Shown here: piece by piece, positions 1 through 22,075 of the stretch | How positions within the stretch are numbered: position 1 is the first letter of the stretch | How the letters are laid out: each line of letters starts with the position of its first letter | Source of the DNA: Candidatus Babelota bacterium | GTDB lineage: Bacteria > Babelota > Babeliae > Babelales > Vermiphilaceae | Reading direction: 5' to 3' | Length of the DNA: 32,000 nt | NCBI GenBank assembly: GCA_039809905.1 | Contig: JBDHVY010000001.1 | Location: 1,080,001 to 1,112,000, forward strand | Notes under the pieces: generated by a model | What the model was told of the DNA's origin: nothing | Seen by the model: the letters and a program-made list of their open reading frames with translations, nothing else | Databases searched by the model: none | Program-made: the position numbers and the translations under genes

Positions 1-621
1 ATGTTCGAATGTACGTGCTTTTATCTGTAAATAATTGAACATAATCAGAGCAGGAATAGCAACAATTAGTCCGGCAATAGTTGTAATCAGTGCTTCTGCA
101 ATACCTGGTGCAATTGTTGCAATGTCGGCAATTTGAGCTTCACTAATGCGCATAAATGAATGAATTAATCCCCAAATAGTTCCAAAAAGTCCCAAAAGTG
201 GGCCTACTGCAGCACATGATGATAAAATGGATAAGTATTGTTCGTTATGTAGTAATATTGTATCAATGGTGGCGTCATTATATTTTTCAAATAATTCCCA
301 TTCAAAGGAATCTATTTTTCGCTGTAAATTGCCCTGTGATAATTCTTTTAAAAATGAAAGATTTTTAGAAATAAAATAACCAGCAGTGGTTTTCTGTTCA
401 GTTGCAGCAATATCAACAAGATCGGCAATGGTTTTTGCCGTTTGAATTTTTTTATTAACTAATTTTAAATGTCTTTCTTTTGCATAAAATAATGCGAGTT
501 TTCCTATAAAAATAGCCCAACAGGCAATAGACATACATAATAAGATAAGCAAAACGAATTTACTAACGGCATCAGATTGTGCTACAAGTAGCCAGAGAGA
601 ATTACCTGAAAAAATATTCAT
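1..621 (-). CDS. MotA/TolQ/ExbB-family proton-channel protein; N-terminal part, the gene runs off the left edge
   Basis: Not in the ORF track because there is no stop in the window. The reverse complement of 1-621 starts at ATG (621-619) and reads MNIFSGNSLWLLVAQSDAVSKFVLLILLCMSIACWAIFIGK...AAVGPLLGLFGTIWGLIHSFMRI...IAPGIAEALITTIAGLIVAIPALIMFNYL without stops. PLLGLxGTxxGxI and AEALxTTxxGL are the TolQ/ExbB signature. Confidence 0.75.
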   Translation of the reverse strand, partial: MNIFSGNSLWLLVAQSDAVSKFVLLILLCMSIACWAIFIGKLALFYAKERHLKLVNKKIQTAKTIADLVDIAATEQKTTAGYFISKNLSFLKELSQGNLQRKIDSFEWELFEKYNDATIDTILLHNEQYLSILSSCAAVGPLLGLFGTIWGLIHSFMRISEAQIADIATIAPGIAEALITTIAGLIVAIPALIMFNYLQIKARTFEH

Positions 622-1873: not shown

Positions 1874-3061
1874 GTGATGTTTTTTGTATCGATAATTTTT
1901 TTTGTTCTATCTTTTTTTCCATGTAACGCAATGGACCTTATGCAAAGGAAAAATGAAAGCTATCCTTCTTATGTCTGCATGTTATTTCATGCAATTGTTG
2001 ATTATGATTATGAAAAATCCCGTGAATTGATCAAAGACCATCCGCAGTTAATTAATATCTGTGCTTTATATCATAAGCCTAACAATTTTTGTGAAAAAAT
2101 TACTCCCGTACATTTAGCTGCTCTTGAGGGTAATAGTGTTGCTCTTGAGCAATTGCTTGTTGTTTCACCCCAAGCTATTAACGCAGTAGCAGAACATGGA
2201 AATACACCATTGCATTTGGCAAGCAATGAGCGTATAGCACAATTATTATTAGATAATGGTGCTCGTGAGGTTGTTAATCAACACAACAATGCGGGAAATA
2301 CTCCCTTATATGAAGCTCTTTATGGTAAGCATCATGAAGAACCATATTTTGATGTTGCCAGATACTTACTGAGATATACAGATGTTTGTGATGAAAAACT
2401 TCCCGATAAACAAATAGTTTTGCGTGCTGTTAATTATAAAAATATCAGTTACCTGTCTGATCAATTGCTTATTAGCAATCGCACAGATTATAGAGCGGCA
2501 TTTGATTCGGTTCTTCAAACAAAAAAATCTCTTTTTATAGCGAGTTTTATTGATACATTGGCAAAAAGATTTTTTGAAAACAAGCTTGATTATAAATCAG
2601 AACAATTTTTTATAGAAGAATTGTTTTATTGGGATGGCATTGCTGATCAAGGGCGTCAACATTATTTTCTTAAAACAGTGCGAGAGCGTCCAGATAAGTG
2701 TTCATTTTTTCTTAAAAGAGGAATGAAGATTAATTATAAAAATAAAGATGGCATATCTCCATTGTTGTATGCTATATATCCTTGGATAAAAAAATCATGG
2801 AACGATGTTCCATCACTACATAAATATAATATTTGTGCATTGCTTACTCATGGTGCTGCTGTTACTAAGAGCATGTTGCAAAAGTCGAATGGATATTTGA
2901 AAAAATTATTGAGAAAACAATATGAAACACAACTGTGTTTTATGTGTTTTGAAAATGCTGATGATTTATCAGATATTCCATGTCCAAAACAACATTCAAA
3001 ATTGGTGTGTTCGACCTGTTATTCGCTTTTTGCTCAATGTCCGTTATGTTTTAATTCTTAA
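1874..3061 (+). CDS. Ankyrin-repeat protein with C-terminal RING-like C3HC4 zinc finger and N-terminal signal-like peptide
   Basis: AAGGAGG lies at 1866-1872 before GTG 1874 / ATG 1877. The N-terminus is MFFVSIIFFVLSFFPCNA. ANK repeats include TPVHLAALEGNSVALEQLL, GNTPLHLASNERIAQLLLDNGA, GNTPLYEAL and DGISPLLYAI...LLTHGAAV. The C-terminus, CFMCFENADDLSDIPCPKQHSKLVCSTCYSLFAQCPLC, has the spacing C-x2-C-x11-C-x3-H-x4-C-x2-C-x6-C-x2-C. Confidence 0.8.
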   Translation: MMFFVSIIFFVLSFFPCNAMDLMQRKNESYPSYVCMLFHAIVDYDYEKSRELIKDHPQLINICALYHKPNNFCEKITPVHLAALEGNSVALEQLLVVSPQAINAVAEHGNTPLHLASNERIAQLLLDNGAREVVNQHNNAGNTPLYEALYGKHHEEPYFDVARYLLRYTDVCDEKLPDKQIVLRAVNYKNISYLSDQLLISNRTDYRAAFDSVLQTKKSLFIASFIDTLAKRFFENKLDYKSEQFFIEELFYWDGIADQGRQHYFLKTVRERPDKCSFFLKRGMKINYKNKDGISPLLYAIYPWIKKSWNDVPSLHKYNICALLTHGAAVTKSMLQKSNGYLKKLLRKQYETQLCFMCFENADDLSDIPCPKQHSKLVCSTCYSLFAQCPLCFNS

Positions 3062-4616: not shown

Positions 4617-6308
4617 TTATTCTTTATTTTCTCCTCCAAATGTGAATACATATGCTTGAAGGCCTTTAGGGCATTGTAGAGTCAGTGTGTGTCTTGCGTA
4701 ATCTTCTTTTAAATCAATAATTTCGTACATGCGCGCTTGATGGACTATAATTTTTCCTTGATCATTCATATCATGAGTCCAATATTTTTTTGGCACCGGT
4801 TTTTCATCAAGCAAAATAGTAAGTTCTATTGGTGTGTCTGCCTGCATTACCAAGTAAACGTGATGTGCAATAAAATTTAATATTATCGAGCTTGTATTGC
4901 TATTACTTTGTATACAATCAGAAGTAATGGTCCATGTTCCTTGTAAGCCAACCTGATTATTATCAAGCTTGTCTGTTGTTTGATACATAAAAGATGTATT
5001 TTTTTGTATGTGTAAAGATGGATGATAACTGTTACCGCGTTCAAAACCAAGATATGTTTCAGGAGTCAGTGCTTTTGTAAATGCACATTCTTCTATTTTG
5101 TTGCAGGCAGGCATGCCCAGTAAACTGCGAATCGCGTTTTCCATTTCCACATAACCGCCTTCACCAAAATGTTTTTTTATAATGGTGCCATTTCGATCAA
5201 TAAGATAATGTGCTGGCCAATAATGATTATTATAAGCATTCCACGTTTGATAATCACTATCTAATGCGACGGGATATGTAATATTAAATCTTTTAATTGC
5301 ATCTTCAACGTGTTGTTTGTTTTTTTCGAATGCAAATTCAGGAGTATGAATACCAATTACGGTAAAACCGTATTTTTTATATGAATTATACCATTCTGTT
5401 ACGTGAGGTAATGTGCGGATACAATTAATACAGGTATATGTCCAAAAATCAAGAAGGATGACGGTGCCATGCAGCTGTGCAATTGTTAGTGGTTCTGAAT
5501 TAATCCAATCAGTGATTCCTTGCAATTCAGGAGCTTTTGACATTGTTTCAATTCCTTTTGTTTCTCTCAATATATTCAGTTCTTCTTCTAAGGCTTTATT
5601 TTGTTCAATGGAAATTGTTGGGAACCAATAGGCCATTTTTTCTTGAAATATAATATCAAGATGAAAGATCATTCCAATCGCACTTATAATAACAATTATG
5701 CCAAATATTTGCCTAATCGTCTGCGTATAAGGAGTAATGCTTGTTATAGAGTTCATTATTTTTGAACTACCAAAGCAAAATAAAAGCATTGGTATTGCCG
5801 CGCCAATTGAATAGGCGAGAGTGATGATTATTGTAGAAAAAGTAGTTTTTCCTGCTGCTGCAAGTGTAGTAATTGTTGCTAAAATTGGGCCAGCACAGGG
5901 AGTCCATAAAAGACCAAGTGCAATTCCTAACAGAAAACCGCTCATAAAATGCTCATGCATAGCGATCGAATGTTCTTGTATAAAATTTCCTGCTCGCGCA
6001 ATGTGTTGTGTAAGTTTAATAAATGCTTGCTCAAAAGAAGGAATAATCATAGTAAGGCCAAAGAATATAACAATAGCTAAGGCAATATATCTAAAAATAT
6101 CAGGAGAAATTCCGGTTGCTTGAACAATGGTGCTCAAAGTTAAGGTGAAAAATGAAAAACTTAGGATCAGTCCAATAACGATGCCAAATGGTTTTTTATG
6201 GTTACCATTACTGCCGGCAGTGAATAAAATGGGGGCAATGGAGAGTATACAGGGAGAAAAAATAGTAATAAGACCTGCCAGGAATGAAAAAACAATGAGC
6301 AAAAGCAT
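4617..6308 (-). CDS. DipZ-like fusion: CcdA/DsbD transmembrane thiol-disulfide transporter + thioredoxin-like domain + C-terminal beta-rich domain
   Basis: 563 aa. The N-terminal half is polytopic, with FSPCILSIAP and WTPCAGPIL (the paired Cys-in-membrane motifs of CcdA/DsbD). The middle has DFWTYTCINCIRTLPHV (CxxC redoxin). The overall architecture resembles DipZ. Confidence 0.8.
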   Translation of the reverse strand: MLLLIVFSFLAGLITIFSPCILSIAPILFTAGSNGNHKKPFGIVIGLILSFSFFTLTLSTIVQATGISPDIFRYIALAIVIFFGLTMIIPSFEQAFIKLTQHIARAGNFIQEHSIAMHEHFMSGFLLGIALGLLWTPCAGPILATITTLAAAGKTTFSTIIITLAYSIGAAIPMLLFCFGSSKIMNSITSITPYTQTIRQIFGIIVIISAIGMIFHLDIIFQEKMAYWFPTISIEQNKALEEELNILRETKGIETMSKAPELQGITDWINSEPLTIAQLHGTVILLDFWTYTCINCIRTLPHVTEWYNSYKKYGFTVIGIHTPEFAFEKNKQHVEDAIKRFNITYPVALDSDYQTWNAYNNHYWPAHYLIDRNGTIIKKHFGEGGYVEMENAIRSLLGMPACNKIEECAFTKALTPETYLGFERGNSYHPSLHIQKNTSFMYQTTDKLDNNQVGLQGTWTITSDCIQSNSNTSSIILNFIAHHVYLVMQADTPIELTILLDEKPVPKKYWTHDMNDQGKIIVHQARMYEIIDLKEDYARHTLTLQCPKGLQAYVFTFGGENKE

Positions 6309-6450: not shown

Positions 6451-6526
6451 AAGCTCTTAACCGGGGTCCTCATCCGAAATAATTTGTCCTTCGTAGCTTC
6501 AGCGAAGTAGGAAATGAAGGATGGGG
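6451..6526 (+). repeat. GC-palindrome repeat copy 1 (degenerate core CGGGGTCCTCA at 6462-6472) plus the 43-nt left arm of the mnmA-flanking inverted repeat (6484-6526)
   Basis: 6484-6526 (TTGTCCTTCGTAGCTTCAGCGAAGTAGGAAATGAAGGATGGGG) matches the reverse complement of 7598-7640 at 40/43 positions. The adjacent 22 nt including the core match at 15/22. Confidence 0.85.
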
Positions 6527-6546: not shown

Positions 6547-7674
6547 ATGAAGGTTGCAGTGCTAGTATCAGGAGGAGTTGATAGTTCAGTTGCCCTCCAA
6601 TTGCTTAAAAACCAAGGGCATGATGTAACTGCTTTTTACCTTAAAATATGGCTAGAAGATGAGCTTTCCTATCTGGGAGATTGTCCTTGGCAGGAAGATC
6701 TTTCCTATGTACAACAGGTTTGTGATCAACTCAATGTTCCTCTTGAGGTGATATCTTTACAAAAAGAATACAAGGATGAAGTGGTAGCCCATACTATTGC
6801 GCAAGTAAAAGCTGGACGCACACCAAATCCTGATATTTTATGTAATCAACGTATTAAATTTGGTCTTTTTCTGGACAAAATCGATTCCAGCTTTGAAAAA
6901 GTTGCGTCTGGGCATTATGCCCAAATTCGTGAAAAAGACGGAATATTTGAATTGTTTCAATCACCTGATCCCATCAAAGATCAAACATATTTTTTATCCC
7001 ATTTGAGTCAAGATCAATTAAAACGAGTGTTGTTTCCGATTGGACATCTGAAAAAAAATGAATTGCGTGCTTTAGCGCATGATTTTAATCTGCCCAATAA
7101 AGATCGTAAAGATAGCCAAGGTATTTGTTTTTTGGGAAAATTTAAATTTAGCGATTTTATTAAACATCATCTGGGTACACAGCAAGGTCTTATGATTGAA
7201 AGTGAAACAGGAAACATTATGGGTCATCATGATGGTTTTTGGTTTTATACCATTGGTCAACGTCAAGGACTGGGTTTGGGTGGAGGACCATGGTATGTGG
7301 TTGCAAAAGATAGCGTTAAAAATATTGTTTATATTTCTCGTAACTATTATGATGCTGAAAAGCAACGAGACCACTTTATGGTTCAAAAAATACATTGGTT
7401 ATCTGGTGTAGCCCGTACACTAACGAATCTTTCTGTTAAATTGCGTCATGGAGCGCAAAAATATTCCTGCGTGTTGGATTATAATATGGATGATGCTGTA
7501 TCAATAAAAATTTCAGAAAGAGATCAAGGTATTGCAGCTGGGCAATATGCAGTGTTTTATGATGGTGATGTGTGTCTTGGTAGTGGGGTAATTTCAACCC
7601 CATCCTCCATTTCCTATTTTGCTGAAGCTACGAAGGACAAGTCATTCCCCATGGGGACCCCAAATAAAGATTAA
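6547..7674 (+). CDS. mnmA: tRNA 2-thiouridine(34) synthase MnmA, with a repeat-derived C-terminal tail
   Basis: MKVAVLVSGGVDSSVA is a PP-loop, and the protein contains NPDILCNQRIKF, DQTYFL, DSQGICFLG and GQYAVFYDGDVCLGSGVI. I place the start at ATG 6547 rather than the track's 6514, because the 11 extra codons lie in repeat sequence. The last ~25 codons (7598-7674) are repeat-encoded. Confidence 0.9.
   Translation: MKVAVLVSGGVDSSVALQLLKNQGHDVTAFYLKIWLEDELSYLGDCPWQEDLSYVQQVCDQLNVPLEVISLQKEYKDEVVAHTIAQVKAGRTPNPDILCNQRIKFGLFLDKIDSSFEKVASGHYAQIREKDGIFELFQSPDPIKDQTYFLSHLSQDQLKRVLFPIGHLKKNELRALAHDFNLPNKDRKDSQGICFLGKFKFSDFIKHHLGTQQGLMIESETGNIMGHHDGFWFYTIGQRQGLGLGGGPWYVVAKDSVKNIVYISRNYYDAEKQRDHFMVQKIHWLSGVARTLTNLSVKLRHGAQKYSCVLDYNMDDAVSIKISERDQGIAAGQYAVFYDGDVCLGSGVISTPSSISYFAEATKDKSFPMGTPNKD
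7598..7668 (-). repeat. GC-palindrome repeat copy 2 (core TGGGGACCCCA at 7652-7662) and right arm of the inverted repeat; forms the mnmA 3' end
   Basis: It is the reverse complement of copy 1 (see above). It encodes the mnmA tail PSSISYFAEATKDKSFPMGTPNKD* and ends 18 nt before the pgsA ATG. Confidence 0.85.
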
Positions 7675-15598: not shown

Positions 15599-16345
15599 AT
15601 GTCTGCAGCTGTTATCCGCCAAGAATTAAAAAAACATATAAATCCTGCAAAAGCAGCACAACCTTTATTTTTTAAAACAGGTTTGGGTGGGTATGCTGAG
15701 CATGATCAATTTCTTGGTATTTCAGTTCCTATTCTTCGTACTATTGCGCGTCAGTTTTGTGATGCATCATTTTCTGATATAACAATTTTATTGCAATCGA
15801 AATTTAATGAAGAGCGCTTATTAGCGCTTTTTATTTTGATTATACAATACAATAAAAATAATCGGTTAATATGGGGTCCCCGTGCGCAATCTAATGAGCA
15901 TGGGGTTAATGTAACAAAACAAAATATCTACAATTTTTATACTGCACACATAGCGCACATCAATAATTGGAATTTAGTAGATGCTTCAGCGCATGAAACA
16001 ATTGGCGCATATTTATTTCATTACACGCGCGATAAAAATGTACTGCTTATATTAGCTCATTCAGATAATCTTTGGCAGCGCCGCATTGCAATGATTGCAA
16101 CGCTTTATTTTATTCGTCAAGGCGATACATCATGGACGTATGATATTGCAGATATTTTATTGCATGATACGCATGATTTGATTCATAAAGCAGTTGGTTG
16201 GATGCTGCGTGAAGCAGGTAAAAAAAATGAAGATGAATTAAAACATTTCTTAAACAAGCATGCACATCATATGCCCAGAACAATGTTGCGCTATGCAATT
16301 GAAAAATTATCTCCCGATATGCGCGCATTCTATATGAATCAATAG
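15599..16345 (+). CDS. DNA alkylation repair protein (AlkD-like HEAT-repeat glycosylase family) carrying an in-frame repeat insertion
   Basis: ATG 15599 lies 1 nt after the grpE stop. FFKTGLGGYAEHDQFLGISVPILRTIA, INNWNLVDASA, WQRRIAMIATLYFI, HKAVGWMLREAGK and MPRTMLRYAIEKL match the family as I recall it. The track's upstream extension from 15404 overlaps grpE out of frame. Confidence 0.75.
   Translation: MSAAVIRQELKKHINPAKAAQPLFFKTGLGGYAEHDQFLGISVPILRTIARQFCDASFSDITILLQSKFNEERLLALFILIIQYNKNNRLIWGPRAQSNEHGVNVTKQNIYNFYTAHIAHINNWNLVDASAHETIGAYLFHYTRDKNVLLILAHSDNLWQRRIAMIATLYFIRQGDTSWTYDIADILLHDTHDLIHKAVGWMLREAGKKNEDELKHFLNKHAHHMPRTMLRYAIEKLSPDMRAFYMNQ
15864..15910 (+). repeat. GC-palindrome repeat copy 3 (TTAATATGGGGTCCCCG), in frame inside the AlkD-like CDS
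   Basis: GGTTAATATGGGGTCCCCGTGCGCAATCTAATGAGCATGGGGTTAAT shares the 16-mer TTAATATGGGGTCCCC with copies 4 and 5. It is translated as RLIWGPRAQSNEHGVN. Confidence 0.7.
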
Positions 16346-17483: not shown

Positions 17484-17535
17484 ATGTATATTTTGAACTG
17501 GGTTGGGACGTTACAGCGAAAATCATTATATTGTC

Positions 17536-17566
17536 TTGAAAATATCAGCTAAAAATCTCTTAATAT
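17536..17566 (+). promoter_or_regulatory. Candidate promoter overlapping repeat copy 4: TTGAAA, 18-19 nt spacer, TTAATAT, then the GC-rich palindrome in the discriminator position
   Basis: TTGAAA lies at 17536-41 and TAATAT at 17561-66, directly abutting GGGGTCCCC. ATG 17611 is 45 nt further. Copy 5 has the equivalent layout (CCGAAA-N18-TTAATA) before the gene starting at 20214. Confidence 0.3.
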
Positions 17567-17580
17567 GGGGTCCCCAGTCG
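17549..17580 (+). repeat. GC-palindrome repeat copy 4 (core TGGGGTCCCCA at 17566-17576)
   Basis: CTAAAAATCTCTTAATATGGGGTCCCCAGTCGG aligns with the reverse complement of copy 5, CTAAAACTCTCTTAATATGGGGTCCCCAATCAG. There are 34 nt between the core and ATG 17611. Confidence 0.85.
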
Positions 17581-17610
17581 GAATAAAATAGAGACTGAGG
17601 CTATAAAAAT

Positions 17611-18468: not shown

Positions 18469-18487
18469 AGATAATCTACCCTTTTAA
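18457..18487. terminator. Bidirectional terminator hairpin shared by convergent genes; both stop codons lie in the stem
   Basis: AAGGGTAG-AGATAAT-CTACCCTT is an 8-bp stem flanked by an A run and a T run. TAG (18466-68) ends the plus-strand gene, and CTA (18476-78), which is TAG on the minus strand, ends the minus-strand gene. Confidence 0.55.
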
Positions 18488-19582
18488 ATAATTTAAGATA
18501 CCGAACATTGCTTCGAAAAAAATCAAAATAATAATGAGTACAGAAAAAAGATCTTCTCGTGTTGTATCTATTTTATGCTGAAAAACTGTTTGTACTTCTT
18601 CGACGATGTGCAACTTTCTATCAATGCCAGCATGCCAACTTTTAAGATCAAGTTTTTCTGCAAGCAGAGAATGTATTTCCGAATAATACGGTTCACCTGC
18701 AATTTTTATACTACTTTCAAGACGTTCAGTGATTACTGAAATATCTACTTTTAATTTACGTAATTGCCCTACTGGGTCGCTAAAAAATGTTCCAAAGAAT
18801 GGTAAATAGGCGCCCCACGATAGATTTGTTTTTTTGCGCTCGTAGATAGTATTAATTTCTTGGTCAAGAAGCCGATCAAAAAAGCGTAATTCAAGTTGCT
18901 GAATGTTGGCAAATTCAAACAAATCAATGATGTCGTCATATTCTTCTTCATAAACAAATGCAGCATCAACATCAATAACAATCAAGCTTCCTCTAAAGTA
19001 ACCAATAGCAGAATCTAAGATTTCATTTTTTTGAAATTCTGAAAGTATTTCAGTTTCAAATCTCAAAGTTGATGCAATGGTGCTACCATAATCTTTTTGT
19101 AATTGTGTTAAATCAAGAGATGCTGGTTGTGGATCTACTTGGATGATAATATATGATGCACATGTTTGAAAAAATTTTGGCTGAGCGATATACGATTCTA
19201 TTTTTTTGTATATTGATCGAGCATCAAGAACACTTTGTTGTTGATATTTGTTTGCAAGTTCATTGCAGTTAACACGAAGATTTTCAAGTGTGTCATTAAA
19301 AGGAATTTTATACGTTAATGAGATAGCCCCAAAACTATGTATTTTGCTGCTGATACAATATGAATGTGCATGGGGATGTGGAAGCTCAATAGCAAGAGGA
19401 GCATTATATTGTTTGAAATGTTTTGGTAAATGAAGAGGCTGTTTAATAATATCGCGTGATTCTTCTATTTTTTCTAAATCAATATCATCGCCAACATCAT
19501 ATGCCCATAGAATCAGTATATTTCCTGAAAATATATGATCAGTTTTTTCTTTTTGCTCAAGGTCTTGTGTTTGGGACTGCAT
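18476..19582 (-). CDS. DUF155 / RMD1-like (YagE-family) protein with C-terminal TM helix
   Basis: 368 aa. The soluble body is followed by ...REDLFSVLIIILIFFEAMFGILNYLKG, the architecture I associate with DUF155. The assignment is from memory and moderately uncertain. Confidence 0.4.
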   Translation of the reverse strand: MQSQTQDLEQKEKTDHIFSGNILILWAYDVGDDIDLEKIEESRDIIKQPLHLPKHFKQYNAPLAIELPHPHAHSYCISSKIHSFGAISLTYKIPFNDTLENLRVNCNELANKYQQQSVLDARSIYKKIESYIAQPKFFQTCASYIIIQVDPQPASLDLTQLQKDYGSTIASTLRFETEILSEFQKNEILDSAIGYFRGSLIVIDVDAAFVYEEEYDDIIDLFEFANIQQLELRFFDRLLDQEINTIYERKKTNLSWGAYLPFFGTFFSDPVGQLRKLKVDISVITERLESSIKIAGEPYYSEIHSLLAEKLDLKSWHAGIDRKLHIVEEVQTVFQHKIDTTREDLFSVLIIILIFFEAMFGILNYLKG

Positions 19583-19663
19583 GTGCAGATCTTTCTTTTT
19601 TTATAAGTTATTTTTATTGAGCATACTCAAGATTAGATAATAAAAAAAGAGGGTATACATTTT

Positions 19664-19702
19664 TTAAGTGGTGCATCAAAAAAATGCACCACTTAATTTT
19701 TT
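19664..19702. terminator. Strong hairpin immediately downstream of the 19705-20214 stop
   Basis: TTAAGTGGTGCAT-CAAAAAA-ATGCACCACTTAA is a perfect 13-bp stem. The T run follows the stem only on the plus strand, so its role for the minus-strand gene is uncertain. Confidence 0.4.
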
Positions 19703-19704
19703 AG

Positions 19705-20214
19705 CTATTCCTGATTTGCTTGTCTAACACTTGCTACGCCTGCTGCAAAGCCCTGATTGTATTTTTCTGATGCCTCTGCTTGGCTAGCAGCTTGTTCAGC
19801 TCTTTGTGCCGATGATTGAGCATTTTCTGCGGCTTGTTGTGCCCTATCGGCATCATCTTGAGTTTTATAATAACGATCATCATAGCTAGAGCGATAAGGA
19901 TATGTAGCACTATATGTTAATGCGGACATAATACCAAAAGATAGTAAAAAATTGCCATATGCCCAACCACCAAATCCACCAGCCCAATATCCACCACGGC
20001 CATAATATCCTCCGTGGTGATATCCGTGTCCGCCATGATATCCATTGTGATGTCCGCCATCATGATGATGACCGCCACCTGCGTGATGTCCGCCCATATG
20101 CCCACCACCACCATGGCCTCCATGTCCACCGCCGCCATGAGAAAATGTATTTTGCGTTAATAGTAATGAGCTTACCATTATTATTAGAGAATATATGTTT
20201 TTTTTCTTATTCAT
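19705..20214 (-). CDS. Secreted Gly/His-rich low-complexity protein with Ala/Gln-rich C-terminus
   Basis: 169 aa: MNKKKNIYSLIIMVSSLLLTQNTFS-HGGGGHGGHGGGGHMGGHHAGGGHHHDGGHHNGYHGGHGYHHGGYYGRGGYWAGGFGGW..., then AQQAAENAQSSAQRAEQAASQAEA. The N-terminus is paralogous to the 20358-21368 product. This frame is chosen over the overlapping repeat-induced ORFs because it has a signal peptide, a paralogue and a start context. Confidence 0.6.
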   Translation of the reverse strand: MNKKKNIYSLIIMVSSLLLTQNTFSHGGGGHGGHGGGGHMGGHHAGGGHHHDGGHHNGYHGGHGYHHGGYYGRGGYWAGGFGGWAYGNFLLSFGIMSALTYSATYPYRSSYDDRYYKTQDDADRAQQAAENAQSSAQRAEQAASQAEASEKYNQGFAAGVASVRQANQE

Positions 20215-20254
20215 TAAAAATCCTTTTTTTTATAACCCAAATCTTCATTATATG

Positions 20255-20287
20255 CTGATTGGGGACCCCATATTAAGAGAGTTTTAG
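20255..20287 (-). repeat. GC-palindrome repeat copy 5 (core TGGGGACCCCA at 20260-20270)
   Basis: See copy 4. It is inverted relative to copy 4. There are 45 nt between the core and the minus-strand ATG at 20214. Confidence 0.85.
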
Positions 20288-20311
20288 AGACTTTTTTCGG
20301 ACTAGTATAGT

Positions 20312-20337
20312 GAAAAAAGCGCAGATTTCTCCGCGCC
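20312..20337 (-). terminator. Rho-independent terminator after the Gly/aromatic-rich gene
   Basis: The minus strand reads GGCGCGGA-GAAA-TCTGCGC-TTTTTT, a 7-bp GC-rich stem (one G-U pair) with a GNRA-type loop and a T6 run, 20 nt after the stop. Confidence 0.6.
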
Positions 20338-20357
20338 TTTTTATTTTTTTACATTAT

Positions 20358-21368
20358 TTAATCATAATAGCGATCACATGCTTCTGGACAATCATAACTG
20401 TCTGGGCAGCCATATCTTCTTTCGCACGTTCTACGGCTTATGTAATCATCATCATCATTATAGTAATCTCTGCTATAGTAATCCCACCACCATGGATATA
20501 ATGTCCAGAAATCATACCATGGGCTCCAATAACCGCCCCACCAACGATATGGTACACCGCCCCAGAACCAAACAGGGTAATATCCGCCACCATACCAGAA
20601 GCCCCATGCTCTACGTCCATCTACATTGAAACTTCTCGGACGATTACGTGCTGTTGTTGTGCCACCACGAGGAGCTCTTCCTCGTTGTGCTGTAACAGCT
20701 TTGTTTACAGCTGTAGCATTTTTAGCAGCTACTGGTTGAGCTGTTTGAGCTGCAGCAGTAGCTGCTTGTCTTGTTGCAGGAACTGTTGAAGATATTGGAC
20801 TGCCTGTTTTTGTAGTAGGAGTTGTTTGCGTAGCAGTTCTACCAGCAGCTGTTTGAGCTACAGGTGTGCTAGCTGCAGTTCTGCCGGTTGTAACACCTGA
20901 TTGTCGTGAGGCCGCTGGGGCTTGAGTTGTTCCTGCAGGAGCTTGTTGTGTAGAGCCCGCTCTGGCAGCAGCTGATCCAGCGATAGTACCGGCAGTAACG
21001 CCAGCAAGAGTGCCGGCTGCAACTGCACCTCCACCATAATATCCACTATTTCCAGAAACGTTAACATTTGTAGTACGATTTACATTTGCATTACCACGTC
21101 CGGTAGCGCCTGCTCGGCCTGCATTTGTGCCACGACCGCTACTGATACCTCTACCGGCACCACCACGCATGCCAGCAGAACGTGCACCACCGCCACTAAA
21201 GCTTCGGGCACCGCCACCGCCCATGCCTCTACCTCCACCGCCCATATGTCCGCCGCCACCACCGCCATGTCCACCACCGCCGCCACCTCCACGAGGGAAT
21301 GTGTCATGCGTCAATATGAGCATGCTGGCAAGAATGCTCAATATTATTGTATTTATTTTTTTATTCAT
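20358..21368 (-). CDS. Secreted Gly/Arg-rich, Thr/Ala-rich protein with extremely Trp/Tyr-rich, Cys-containing C-terminal module
   Basis: Start ATG 21368 gives MNKKINTIILSILASMLILTHDTFP-RGGGGGGGHGGGGGGHMGGGGRGMGGGG.... The middle is TTGRTAASTPVAQTAAGRTATQTTPTTKTG.... The end is AWGFWYGGGYYPVWFWGGVPYRWWGGYWSPWYDFWTLYPWWWDYYSRDYYNDDDDYISRRTCERRYGCPDSYDCPEACDRYYD. A GNRA-loop terminator follows. Confidence 0.6.
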   Translation of the reverse strand: MNKKINTIILSILASMLILTHDTFPRGGGGGGGHGGGGGGHMGGGGRGMGGGGARSFSGGGARSAGMRGGAGRGISSGRGTNAGRAGATGRGNANVNRTTNVNVSGNSGYYGGGAVAAGTLAGVTAGTIAGSAAARAGSTQQAPAGTTQAPAASRQSGVTTGRTAASTPVAQTAAGRTATQTTPTTKTGSPISSTVPATRQAATAAAQTAQPVAAKNATAVNKAVTAQRGRAPRGGTTTARNRPRSFNVDGRRAWGFWYGGGYYPVWFWGGVPYRWWGGYWSPWYDFWTLYPWWWDYYSRDYYNDDDDYISRRTCERRYGCPDSYDCPEACDRYYD

Positions 21369-21395
21369 AAAATGATCCTCAGGATACATCATATT

Positions 21396-21686
21396 TTATT
21401 TGCATGGTTTACAATTATCATCCATGTCGCAATTACATTCGCATTTTCCATCTTTACGACAATCGCATTTATTGCATGATTTTTTCATATCATTGTCATG
21501 GTCTGAAGATTTTTTTTCTGAATGAGAAAAATATCCAGATTTATGTTGATCATGATTGTGATGTTTTTCAGCTTCGTTTTTATGGTCATGATTATGATTC
21601 ATATCATTATGTGAGTGTTTTTCATGATTTTTGTTTTCATGCATTGAGTTTTTTTCCTCGTTGTTCTTTTTCTTGAAATCGTTCAT
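21396..21686 (-). CDS. Small His-rich protein with Cys-rich (metallothionein-like) C-terminus, no signal peptide
   Basis: 96 aa: ...HENKNHEKHSHNDMNHNHDHKNEAEKHHNHDQHK...SCNKCDCRKDGKCECNCDMDDNCKPCK. AAAGGAG lies 7 nt upstream of the ATG. The stop is 27 nt before the next gene's ATG, so this is probably an operon. Confidence 0.55.
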   Translation of the reverse strand: MNDFKKKNNEEKNSMHENKNHEKHSHNDMNHNHDHKNEAEKHHNHDQHKSGYFSHSEKKSSDHDNDMKKSCNKCDCRKDGKCECNCDMDDNCKPCK

Positions 21687-21873
21687 AGCGAACTCCTTTT
21701 TTTGAAAATAAAATATTTATACTACTATAGTTATCATATATAATAATGTTTTCAAATAGCAATAAATATTTAAGAAAAGCATGTAGGCTAAAGGGTTTTT
21801 TGAGGATAAGAGTATTGTAAGAAACTAACCTGAGGGGCTATTCTTAGGCAGAGGATTGAATAACATGAATAAA

Positions 21874-21882
21874 GGGGGGGGG
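21874..21882. repeat. Homopolymeric G9 (C9 on the minus strand) tract in the lepA / His-rich-gene intergenic region
   Basis: AATAAAGGGGGGGGGTTGTCG is the longest G/C homopolymer I saw in this AT-rich window. Confidence 0.9.
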
Positions 21883-21949
21883 TTGTCGATTTAAAGAGAG
21901 ATTAGCCCCATTTGCTATATAAATACGCACATGAGGCTACTTAAGTATT

Positions 21950-22012
21950 TTATTTCTTTAATAGTGATAAGAAGGCTTCTTGTGGTACTTCAACTGAGCC
22001 GACCTGTTTTAT
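21950..22012 (-). pseudogene. Orphan copy of the last 20 codons plus stop of lepA
   Basis: The minus strand reads ATA AAA CAG GTC GGC TCA GTT GAA GTA CCA CAA GAA GCC TTC TTA TCA CTA TTA AAG AAA TAA, which is IKQVGSVEVPQEAFLSLLKK*. The real lepA end at 22138-22076 encodes MKQVGSVEVPQEAFLSLLKK*. Identity is 51/63 nt. It is in frame with lepA but separated from it by the lepA stop plus two more in-frame stops in the spacer. Confidence 0.85.
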
Positions 22013-22028
22013 CCCCAACGTGCACTAC

Positions 22029-22057
22029 GCTTCAATTGGGGACCCCAATTAAGAAAG
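22029..22057 (-). repeat. GC-palindrome repeat copy 6 (perfect 17-nt palindrome AATTGGGGACCCCAATT; core at 22037-22047)
   Basis: On the minus strand it reads CTTTCTTAATTGGGGTCCCCAATTGAAGC, with the same TCTTAAT-TGGGGTCCCCA layout as copies 4 and 5. It lies in the 63-nt spacer between the lepA stop and the orphan lepA 3' copy. Confidence 0.8.
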
Positions 22058-22075
22058 AAAATAAAGTTTATTTAT

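Follow-up and report, generated by a model that had tools for sequence, protein, structure and literature searches.

Cysteines spaced as CxC and CxxC in clusters that lack aromatic residues are a hallmark of metallothioneins (PMC10612145). The HGGG-type octarepeat of the prion protein binds Cu(II) and Zn(II) (PMC6721516, PMC10249355), as does the Gly/His peptide shepherin I (PMC10698721), and His- or His/Met-rich periplasmic proteins serve in the trafficking of zinc and copper (PMC8561739, PMC13308877). Here we analyse three consecutive genes, A, B and C, on the minus strand of a 32-kb stretch of Candidatus Babelota contig JBDHVY010000001.1 (hereafter the window), which an earlier note on this DNA had described as a possible metal-handling or matrix-forming module. 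We find that A, B and C are real genes, native to the genome. They are almost unique to one uncultured bacterial lineage, in which they are conserved under selection, and they make up a genuine orphan gene family of extreme composition, with metallothionein-like and His-rich exported kinds and without a demonstrably new mechanism. Based on composition and motifs, we tentatively predict that they form a lineage-specific metal-buffering module of two transcription units, a reading to which we give somewhat less than an even chance.

Three genes under purifying selection

All three open reading frames (ORFs) were found on the minus strand at the coordinates given in the earlier note. Gene A (21396-21686) was recognised as an ORF and by its composition and encodes 96 aa, gene B (20358-21368) encodes 336 aa when counted from MNKK, its ORF staying open to 21392, and gene C (19705-20214) encodes 169 aa. 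The distance between the stop codon of A and the start of B is 27 nt, exactly as had been claimed. The Shine-Dalgarno sequence of A is AGGAG and that of B is GAGGA, and placing the start of B at MNKK behind GAGGA agrees with the start of its homologue on contig L084 (see below).

A and B were said to be the only GC-rich stretch in the window, at least partly because of its codons, and both points hold. GC content rises to 0.48-0.51 solely at positions 20501-21500 and is 0.40 or less in the rest of the window. GC at third codon positions (GC3), at 0.27, 0.26 and 0.24 for A, B and C, equals that of the flanking genes (0.24 in lepA and 0.21 in the other neighbour), so the peak arises wholly from codon positions 1 and 2, that is, from Gly, Ala, Thr, Arg and Pro codons. 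Third-position usage of the resident type speaks for the reading frames given here and against import from a GC-rich donor; recent transfer of that kind is ruled out by the native GC3.

The coding status of B and C could be assessed by comparison with L082, a 1498-bp JGI metagenome contig that was the sole locus returned by a contig scan with B-derived patterns. On this contig, a B orthologue represented by its last 226 codons precedes a C orthologue that is complete. Nei-Gojobori estimates of the ratio of non-synonymous to synonymous substitution (dN/dS) between the window and L082 are 0.21 for the aligned part of B (dS 0.63) and 0.17 for the whole of C (dS 0.58), the C proteins being 82% identical. 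Along B, the ratio is 0.38 in the Ala/Thr linker and 0.04 in the tail (residues 251-336), where the differences at codon positions 1, 2 and 3 number 2/2/23. Along C, it is 0.64 in the signal peptide, 0.19 in the His/Gly segment and 0.08 in residues 71-169, with differences of 5/4/25. The excess at third positions, together with the low dN/dS, indicates that B and C are real proteins under purifying selection. The aromatic tail of B and the core of C, composed of a hydrophobic helix and a long helix, experience it most strongly.

Long frames are opened by the GGN repeats on the opposite strand too, and public collections hold hardly any homologues of these proteins. Both observations would suit the alternative that the ORFs are non-functional low-complexity sequence, or that they have been read in the wrong frame or on the wrong strand. 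We consider this alternative effectively excluded, because the differences from L082 gather at third positions with dN/dS far under 1, and because GC3 resembles that of real genes in the frames given here only. Moreover, Shine-Dalgarno sequences, signal peptides and terminators are present and conserved, whereas the opposite-strand ORFs of the window are not preserved in L082. The earlier note had named a frame ambiguity resolved in favour of other frames as a ground for rejecting its proposal; the ambiguity is resolved for the frames that it had used.

Upstream of A lies a promoter/leader block (21687-21762, minus strand) that contains a promoter-like site, TTGCTA-18-TATGAT (21762-21733), and the AGGAG sequence. 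The corresponding block of L084 sits before the first A-type gene of that contig. Over these 76 nt the window and L084 are 76% identical, compared with 65% in coding sequence and 46% farther upstream. Better conservation of the upstream block than of the coding sequence suggests shared regulation, and we take 21687-21762 as a putative conserved regulatory region.

An intrinsic terminator follows B (20313-20342, minus strand), with a hairpin of -17 kcal/mol (z -5.15) and then U6, and is kept in L082. Next to it, the B-C spacer contains a copy of a dispersed repeat (20227-20313, no strand assigned) that resembles miniature inverted-repeat transposable elements (MITEs) and repetitive extragenic palindromes (REPs) and that lies outside the conserved module; this copy, standing before C, carries a promoter-like TTAATA-18-TATAAT at 20276-20247. 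The terminator and palindrome copy reported between B and C are both present. A further hairpin, to which no strand is assigned, lies between C and the next gene (19664-19696; -20.5 kcal/mol, z -7.4) and is likewise kept in L082. It is a perfect 14-bp hairpin with runs of A on the minus strand and one of T on the plus strand; read as an intrinsic terminator, it faces the strand that has no upstream gene, yet it is kept. Both hairpins are far more stable than shuffled sequence (z -5.2 and -7.4).

Protein architecture and relatives

Protein A consists of 19% Lys, 16% Asn, 13.5% His, 12.5% Asp and 8.3% Cys. It has no hydrophobic segment, in keeping with the cytosolic type proposed for it. The N-terminal part is rich in Lys, Asn, His and Asp, and no run of His is longer than two. 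At the C-terminus, residues 71-95 (21402-21476, minus strand) contain 8 Cys in 25 aa and no aromatic residue; over its whole length, A contains two Phe and one Tyr. When 1.84 billion cluster representatives were searched by filter-free HMMER, a single homologue emerged, P0002, a protein of 103 aa (E 3.6e-8, 44-49% identity). The eight cysteines and their spacing, C-x2-C-x-C-x5-C-x-C-x-C-x5-C-x2-C, are invariant between the two proteins, and so is the surrounding GKC...DD.CKPC context. Of the N-terminal part only the polar, basic character is kept, and P0002 contains about 8% His. To judge from this pair, the conserved feature of A is the Cys motif and not His richness. The description of A as His-rich with a CxC-rich end is therefore borne out for its end, which has the eight invariant cysteines, and fares less well for its His content, which is without poly-His runs and is not conserved.

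Searches for the families that this composition brings to mind were negative. Neither A nor P0002 matched a metallothionein family of Pfam or NCBIfam, SmtA (PF02069) included, even at E <= 10; sequence searches of the PDB with the whole of A and with the Cys cluster alone gave nothing relevant, and A had no database match to Hpn. The Hpn-type and metallothionein-type kinship suggested by the earlier note is thus one of composition, with no sequence relationship to Hpn or to a metallothionein family in Pfam, NCBIfam or the PDB. We also considered A as the precursor of a ribosomally synthesized and post-translationally modified peptide (RiPP). This was ruled out, since the window holds no maturase, whether of the radical SAM, LanM or a similar type, and A has lepA, B, C and an MJ0711_N-like gene as its neighbours.

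B and C were both said to be secreted, and signal-type sequences are present at both N-termini. In each protein we place the signal peptide at residues 1-25 (minus strand), by inspection and hydropathy for both and also from an AlphaFold2 (AF2) helix for C. The sequences start with MNKK(K), have hydrophobic segments at 3-25 and 4-25 and a c-region of the form T-x-x-T-F-S/P, and contain no lipobox Cys; the cleavage site is uncertain. The signal-type N-terminus is kept in L082 and L084. These are the features of Sec signal peptides, and B is accordingly predicted to be an exported and C an exported or membrane protein, with a topology deduced from the same features. Residues 1-32 of the two proteins are 56% identical (BLASTP E 3.7e-5, composition-corrected), which agrees with the view that their N-termini are paralogous.

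The mature part of B begins with a Gly/Arg(/His/Met) head (residues 26-109) that carries a shared H-G(n)-H-M-GG motif, and a GGHMGG-type motif occurs in the heads of three of the four B/C-type proteins. A glycine zipper follows at residues 110-135, with G119-x3-G123-x3-G127-x3-G131, and then a linker of 115 residues rich in Ala, Thr, Gln and Pro (residues 136-250). The protein ends in a Trp/Tyr-rich tail with four cysteines (residues 251-336; 20361-20618, all on the minus strand), which closes with C-x5-C-x5-C-x3-C. In its core, 47 aa contain 12 Trp, 9 Tyr and 3 Phe; Trp alone accounts for 26%, against a background of 0.94% in the window. The tail is virtually invariant with respect to L082 at a dS of about 0.75, its 4 Cys being invariant, and its AF2 model is unreliable (pLDDT about 50). 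The middle and the Trp/Tyr/Cys tail are as had been described. The claim that B belongs to a His- and Cys-rich set is not sustained by its composition: B is a Gly/Ala/Thr/Arg-rich protein (19%, 14%, 11% and 9%, respectively) whose 336 aa include just 3 His and 4 Cys.

C contains 20% Gly, 12% Ala, 9% His and 8% Tyr. Its (HGG)n character, noted earlier, resides in residues 26-70 (20005-20139, minus strand), a segment recognised by its composition and disordered in the AF2 model, in which 15 His and 23 Gly make up 84% of 45 aa. Chance would not be expected to yield this composition or that of the B tail core. The number of His in this segment is nearly the same in the two orthologues (15 in the window and 14 in L082), with shifted positions. 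Behind it come a Gly/Tyr/Trp and hydrophobic-helix region (residues 71-105, from AF2 and hydropathy) and an Ala/Gln-rich long helix (residues 113-168, from AF2), again on the minus strand. The single-sequence AF2 model predicts three helices (2-23, 81-104 and 113-168), with residues 25-80 disordered; helix 113-168 is confident (pLDDT 82-95), and helix 81-104 has a hydropathy of 1.5. Small-xxx-small motifs are present at G83-x3-G87 and G94-x3-A98-x3-S102. Both B and C therefore contain a glycine-zipper motif, understood as GxxxGxxxG or small-xxx-small within a hydrophobic segment.

The gene for P0002 lies on L084, a contig of 1366 bp. Its gene order is a 91-aa paralogue of A, P0002 and then, 40 nt on, an exported Gly/His protein. 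The 91-aa paralogue (283-558, plus strand) shares the MNG.KKN start and polar composition and lacks the 8-Cys cluster. The exported protein has a B-like head, SHGGGGGGGHAGGGGGHMGGG, followed by a stretch rich in Arg, Ala, Ser and Thr, and continues in a C-like manner with GYGHG repeats and GGYWGGFGAFAYTDFLL, where the contig ends. The shared N-terminal module, which the earlier note had suggested seeking in related genomes, is represented there by the B-like head. The identity of residues 1-32, combined with this hybrid gene, shows that B and C derive from one gene and that the pairing of A with an exported protein is ancestral. By this comparison of sequences, the combination of an exported Gly/His-rich protein and a Cys-cluster protein is conserved, and its recurrence in a distant relative supports a functional link of A to the exported proteins.

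Few other relatives were found. Against an index of 5.8 billion proteins, full-length B gave nothing at E <= 1e-3, but 8000 poly-Gly word candidates overwhelmed that search and left it uninformative. The B tail had no word-sharing candidate in the same index, which does not contain the B, L082 and L084 proteins, so that this null overstates the rarity; the rarity of the family is real but overstated. A search with the C core returned only a 74-aa fragment of an L082-type orthologue from an ENA assembly, with an MJ0711_N-like gene next to it. There was no match to A or the B tail in a plasmid collection (tblastn), nor to A or C among IMG/VR viral contigs.

No credible family for A, B or C emerged from Pfam (E <= 10), NCBIfam, PHROGs, PADLOC or PDB sequence searches. 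The glycine-zipper families of Pfam (PF05433, PF13488, PF13441) and BA14K (PF07886) were not matched at E <= 10 by B, C, the C orthologue of L082 or the L084 protein. A match of C to Holin_LLH (15-18 bits, where the cut-off is 24.9) is confined to the Ala/Gln-rich helix, and a match to PHROG 4150, a virion protein (E about 1e-3), is below threshold; we rejected both as most likely driven by composition. The tail of C shows a faint resemblance, below threshold, to the Lpp/OprI alanine zipper. In Rfam, no riboswitch or known RNA was found at threshold. A sub-threshold match to Prion_pknot (20101-20140, minus strand; 26.4 bits against a gathering score of 39, E 0.05) falls in the DNA that encodes HGGGGHGGHGGGG of C and most likely reflects octarepeat-like codon composition.

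Insertion next to lepA and the dispersed repeat

The nearest LepA relatives that we found are 68-71% identical, the two closest (on L002 and L003) being 70-71% identical. In these two (L002 9980-12888, L003 9980-12870), lepA and an MJ0711_N-like gene of 354-361 aa overlap or lie 2 nt apart. In the window (18476-23893), lepA and the MJ0711_N-like gene, of 368 aa, are parted by 2.5 kb that hold A, B and C, and in L082 and L083 C is followed by a homologue of the 368-aa gene. The tight gene pair in L002 and L003, taken with the order of C and its neighbour in L082 and L083, indicates that the module is an insertion specific to a sub-lineage.

The junction with lepA bears a likely trace of this event at 21950-22075 (minus strand), where a repeat copy (core 22037-22047) is followed by an in-frame second 3' end of lepA (21950-22012). 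The last 19 codons of lepA and its stop codon are duplicated in frame at a distance of 126 nt (region 21950-22138, minus strand), and the 63 nt between the copies contain the repeat. The downstream copy encodes the identical peptide, KQVGSVEVPQEAFLSLLKK*; across those codons all differences between the copies are synonymous, and the stop is TAA in place of TAG. The second end looks like a displaced lepA 3' end that had evolved as coding DNA elsewhere and would represent a recombination or integration scar.

The dispersed element measures about 60-90 nt and comprises the core TGGGGWCCCCA plus TTGTCCTTCGTAGCTTCAGC...GGATGGGG. Five copies of the core occur in the window, where 0.1 would be expected. 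Repeat copies are located at 6463-6526, 7598-7661, 15857-15895, 17523-17609, 20227-20313 and 22013-22075 in the window, and at 1255-1330 and 1470-1490 in L082. Two inverted copies overlap mnmA, one at its start and one at its last ~25 codons, and recall the palindromic elements of Rickettsia that insert into ORFs. A and B were said to lie between direct copies of this repeat. Cores are indeed present at 20260 and 22037 in the same orientation, but they do not define a mobile unit: the element is dispersed and MITE-like, its insertion sites differ between the window and L082, and the B-C spacer of L082 has no copy. The bracketing copies are therefore not evidence of a cassette, and we ruled out that the repeats delimit A-B as a mobile cassette.

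Elsewhere, the window encodes an ankyrin-repeat protein (1874-3061), two PP2C phosphatases, a DsbD-type protein (4617-6308) and many orphan genes. Within 24000-25386 (minus strand) and 25679-28528 (plus strand), we observed two tandem 207-aa GNAT acetyltransferase paralogues, and two PP2C-type genes that flank a gene resembling Fe/Mn superoxide dismutase. The eukaryote-like domains suggest a host-associated lifestyle. The chromosome of the best LepA relative is 1.75 Mb long, and the data are consistent with a small-genome, possibly host-associated bacterium.

Possible functions and nearest known systems

We infer possible metal binding, matrix formation and phase separation from composition. 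In the proposed metal-buffering module, the conserved promoter/leader would drive A and B as a first transcription unit, which the intrinsic terminator after B would end. A would remain in the cytoplasm, where its Cys8 cluster could bind soft or borderline ions (Cu(I), Zn, Cd, Ni) as a metallothionein-like thiolate cluster, with weaker metal sites added by its polar His/Lys/Asn-rich N-terminal part. B would be exported via Sec, and so would C, the product of the second unit. Behind the signal peptide both would expose a flexible, Gly-rich head, marked by the conserved H-G(4-7)-H-(M)-GG motif and grown in C to a 45-residue stretch that is one third His and that might chelate Cu(II), Zn(II) or Ni(II) through imidazoles and backbone amides, like HGGG-type peptides. 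The glycine-zipper or small-xxx-small hydrophobic helix may hold B and C at the membrane or assemble them within it, and their divergent C-terminal parts, a long helix in C and a Trp/Tyr-rich 4-Cys domain in B, could provide each paralogue with its own attachment or partner. Metal buffering accounts for the invariant Cys pattern of A, for the maintained number of His in C and for the linkage of A to an exported protein. The DsbD-type protein represents envelope thiol-redox machinery, which fits an extracytoplasmic 4-Cys domain in B.

Several observations weigh against metal buffering. A, B and C have no homology to metallothionein, Hpn, CopM/PcoE-type or other metal-protein families, and neither the 32-kb window nor the immediate surroundings of the module contain a metal sensor, an efflux pump or transporter, or a riboswitch. 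The His content of A is not conserved, and for its eight cysteines two structural Zn(Cys)4 sites or an Fe-S cluster are possible alternatives. B has only three His, its most constrained part is the Trp/Tyr-rich domain, which suggests membrane or polymer binding and not metal binding, and the best-conserved part of C is its non-His core; metal buffering leaves unexplained why the constraint on both proteins peaks outside the His-containing segments. Export, on which the proposal depends, is predicted from signal peptides assigned by inspection, hydropathy and an AF2 helix.

The distribution of constraint is better matched if B and C serve structurally in the envelope or a matrix and oligomerise through the glycine zipper, although A is then left unexplained. 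B would attach by its aromatic tail to the membrane interface or a cell-wall polymer, cross-links might form via Tyr, Cys or His-metal bridges, any metal binding would be a means of assembly and not the purpose, and A would serve as a small zinc protein in an accessory or regulatory role. Besides the top constraint on the Trp/Tyr tail of B and on the hydrophobic and long helices of C, the fourfold GxxxG zipper of B and the small-xxx-small motifs of C point in this direction, as do the alanine-zipper echoes in the C tail and the long Ala/Thr/Pro/Gln spacer of B, which is typical of wall-spanning linkers; the strong Shine-Dalgarno sequences and terminators suggest high expression. Such a role gives no account of a cytoplasmic 8-Cys protein that is co-transcribed and co-conserved with exported genes, or of the maintained His count in C, and no Pfam glycine-zipper, Lpp or cell-wall-binding family is reached at threshold. 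We judge it rather unlikely, and improbable that B and C are instead secreted factors directed at a host or at competitors of a host-associated bacterium. In the latter case the Gly/His and Arg/Gly/aromatic regions would act like Gly/His antimicrobial peptides or enter host condensates or membranes. The ankyrin-repeat protein, the two PP2C-type proteins and the many orphans nearby are compatible with secreted factors, as are the lineage-specific insertion of the module and the Trp-rich segments of B, segments of this kind being membrane-active in many peptides. The composition, too, is akin to that found in peptides of the shepherin type, which as Zn(II) complexes form fibrils and have antifungal activity (PMC10698721). 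Strong purifying selection with low dN is, in contrast, unlike typical fast-evolving effectors, the second hydrophobic helix suggests retention in the membrane, there are no secretion-system genes nearby, and A has no role. Finally, we speculate that B and C might be a convergent bacterial counterpart of the prion-protein layout, in which the HGGG region senses Cu(II) or Zn(II), metal binding makes the zipper and the Trp/Tyr domain assemble as a fibril, a gel or a coacervate, either at the envelope or inside a host, and co-transcribed A sets the cytoplasmic metal threshold; we regard this as very improbable.

If the three genes do buffer metals, the Cys8 motif of A would join a very short list of bacterial metallothionein-like proteins, and an exported His/Gly 'sponge' of a new type would be added, sharing one operon with the Cys8 protein, both being found in an uncultured small-genome lineage. 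Whatever its function, the tail of B is an unusually clean, strongly constrained and extremely aromatic bacterial domain without known relatives. The locus also illustrates how an insertion can split a tight pair of lepA and its neighbour and leave a duplicate of the lepA 3' end, with synonymous differences only, as a putative scar.

Among known systems, A is most readily compared with metallothioneins, both those with CxC/CxxC clusters in the style of the animal beta-domain and the bacterial SmtA/BmtA, PmtA and MymT. Its last 25 residues likewise hold eight cysteines as CxxC, CxC and CxCxC, separated by charged or polar residues and lacking aromatics, and it is likewise small and without an export signal. 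Unlike them, it has no detectable similarity to a metallothionein family of Pfam, NCBIfam or the PDB; the cluster makes up just a quarter of its length, and the 70-residue Lys/Asn/His/Asp-rich N-terminal part has no metallothionein counterpart. The Ni-storing, His-rich Hpn and Hpn-2 of Helicobacter pylori are also small cytoplasmic proteins that pair His-rich sequence with Cys motifs. Hpn is about half His, whereas A has 13.5% His without a poly-His run, its His is not conserved in its homologue, and there is no sequence similarity.

B and C recall the glycine-zipper envelope proteins (SlyB/Pcp, the Rickettsia 17-kDa antigen and the Pfam Gly-zipper families) and BA14K, which are small, exported and equipped with a hydrophobic segment of the GxxxG type; BA14K adds to this a region rich in Gly, Tyr, His and Arg and an RY..SYD-like tail that contains Cys. 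B and C differ in that no Pfam match appears at E <= 10 and that a lipobox Cys is absent. The Gly/His-rich antimicrobial peptides shepherin I/II and holotricin 3 are nearly identical in composition to residues 26-70 of C, share its (G)nH repeats and bind Zn(II)/Cu(II). Those peptides are eukaryotic, short and released by processing, whereas C is bacterial and has a hydrophobic helix and a long helical tail. Like B and C, the periplasmic His- or His/Met-rich metal proteins (PcoE/SilE, CopI, PA4063, ZinT-type His loops) are exported and have flexible His(/Met)-rich segments, which in their case capture copper or zinc in the envelope; they have defined folds and families, none of which B or C matches, and B and C have no adjoining metal transporter or sensor.

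The prion protein combines, in its N-terminal half, a signal peptide, PHGGGWGQ octarepeats and a AGAAAAGA/GxxxG hydrophobic segment, ahead of a disulfide-bonded C-terminal domain. The order in B and C is the same: the signal peptide is followed by Gly/His repeats of the HGGG type, then by a hydrophobic glycine-zipper segment and lastly by a C-terminal domain, which contains Cys in B. This is an analogy of layout and chemistry without homology, in that the repeats of B and C are irregular, their C-terminal domains are unrelated to that of the prion protein and there is no glycosylphosphatidylinositol (GPI) signal. By layout and chemistry, and without family membership in any of them, the nearest analogues of the three proteins are the Cys clusters of metallothioneins for A, the Cu/Zn-binding repeats of the HGGG type and the periplasmic His-rich metal proteins.

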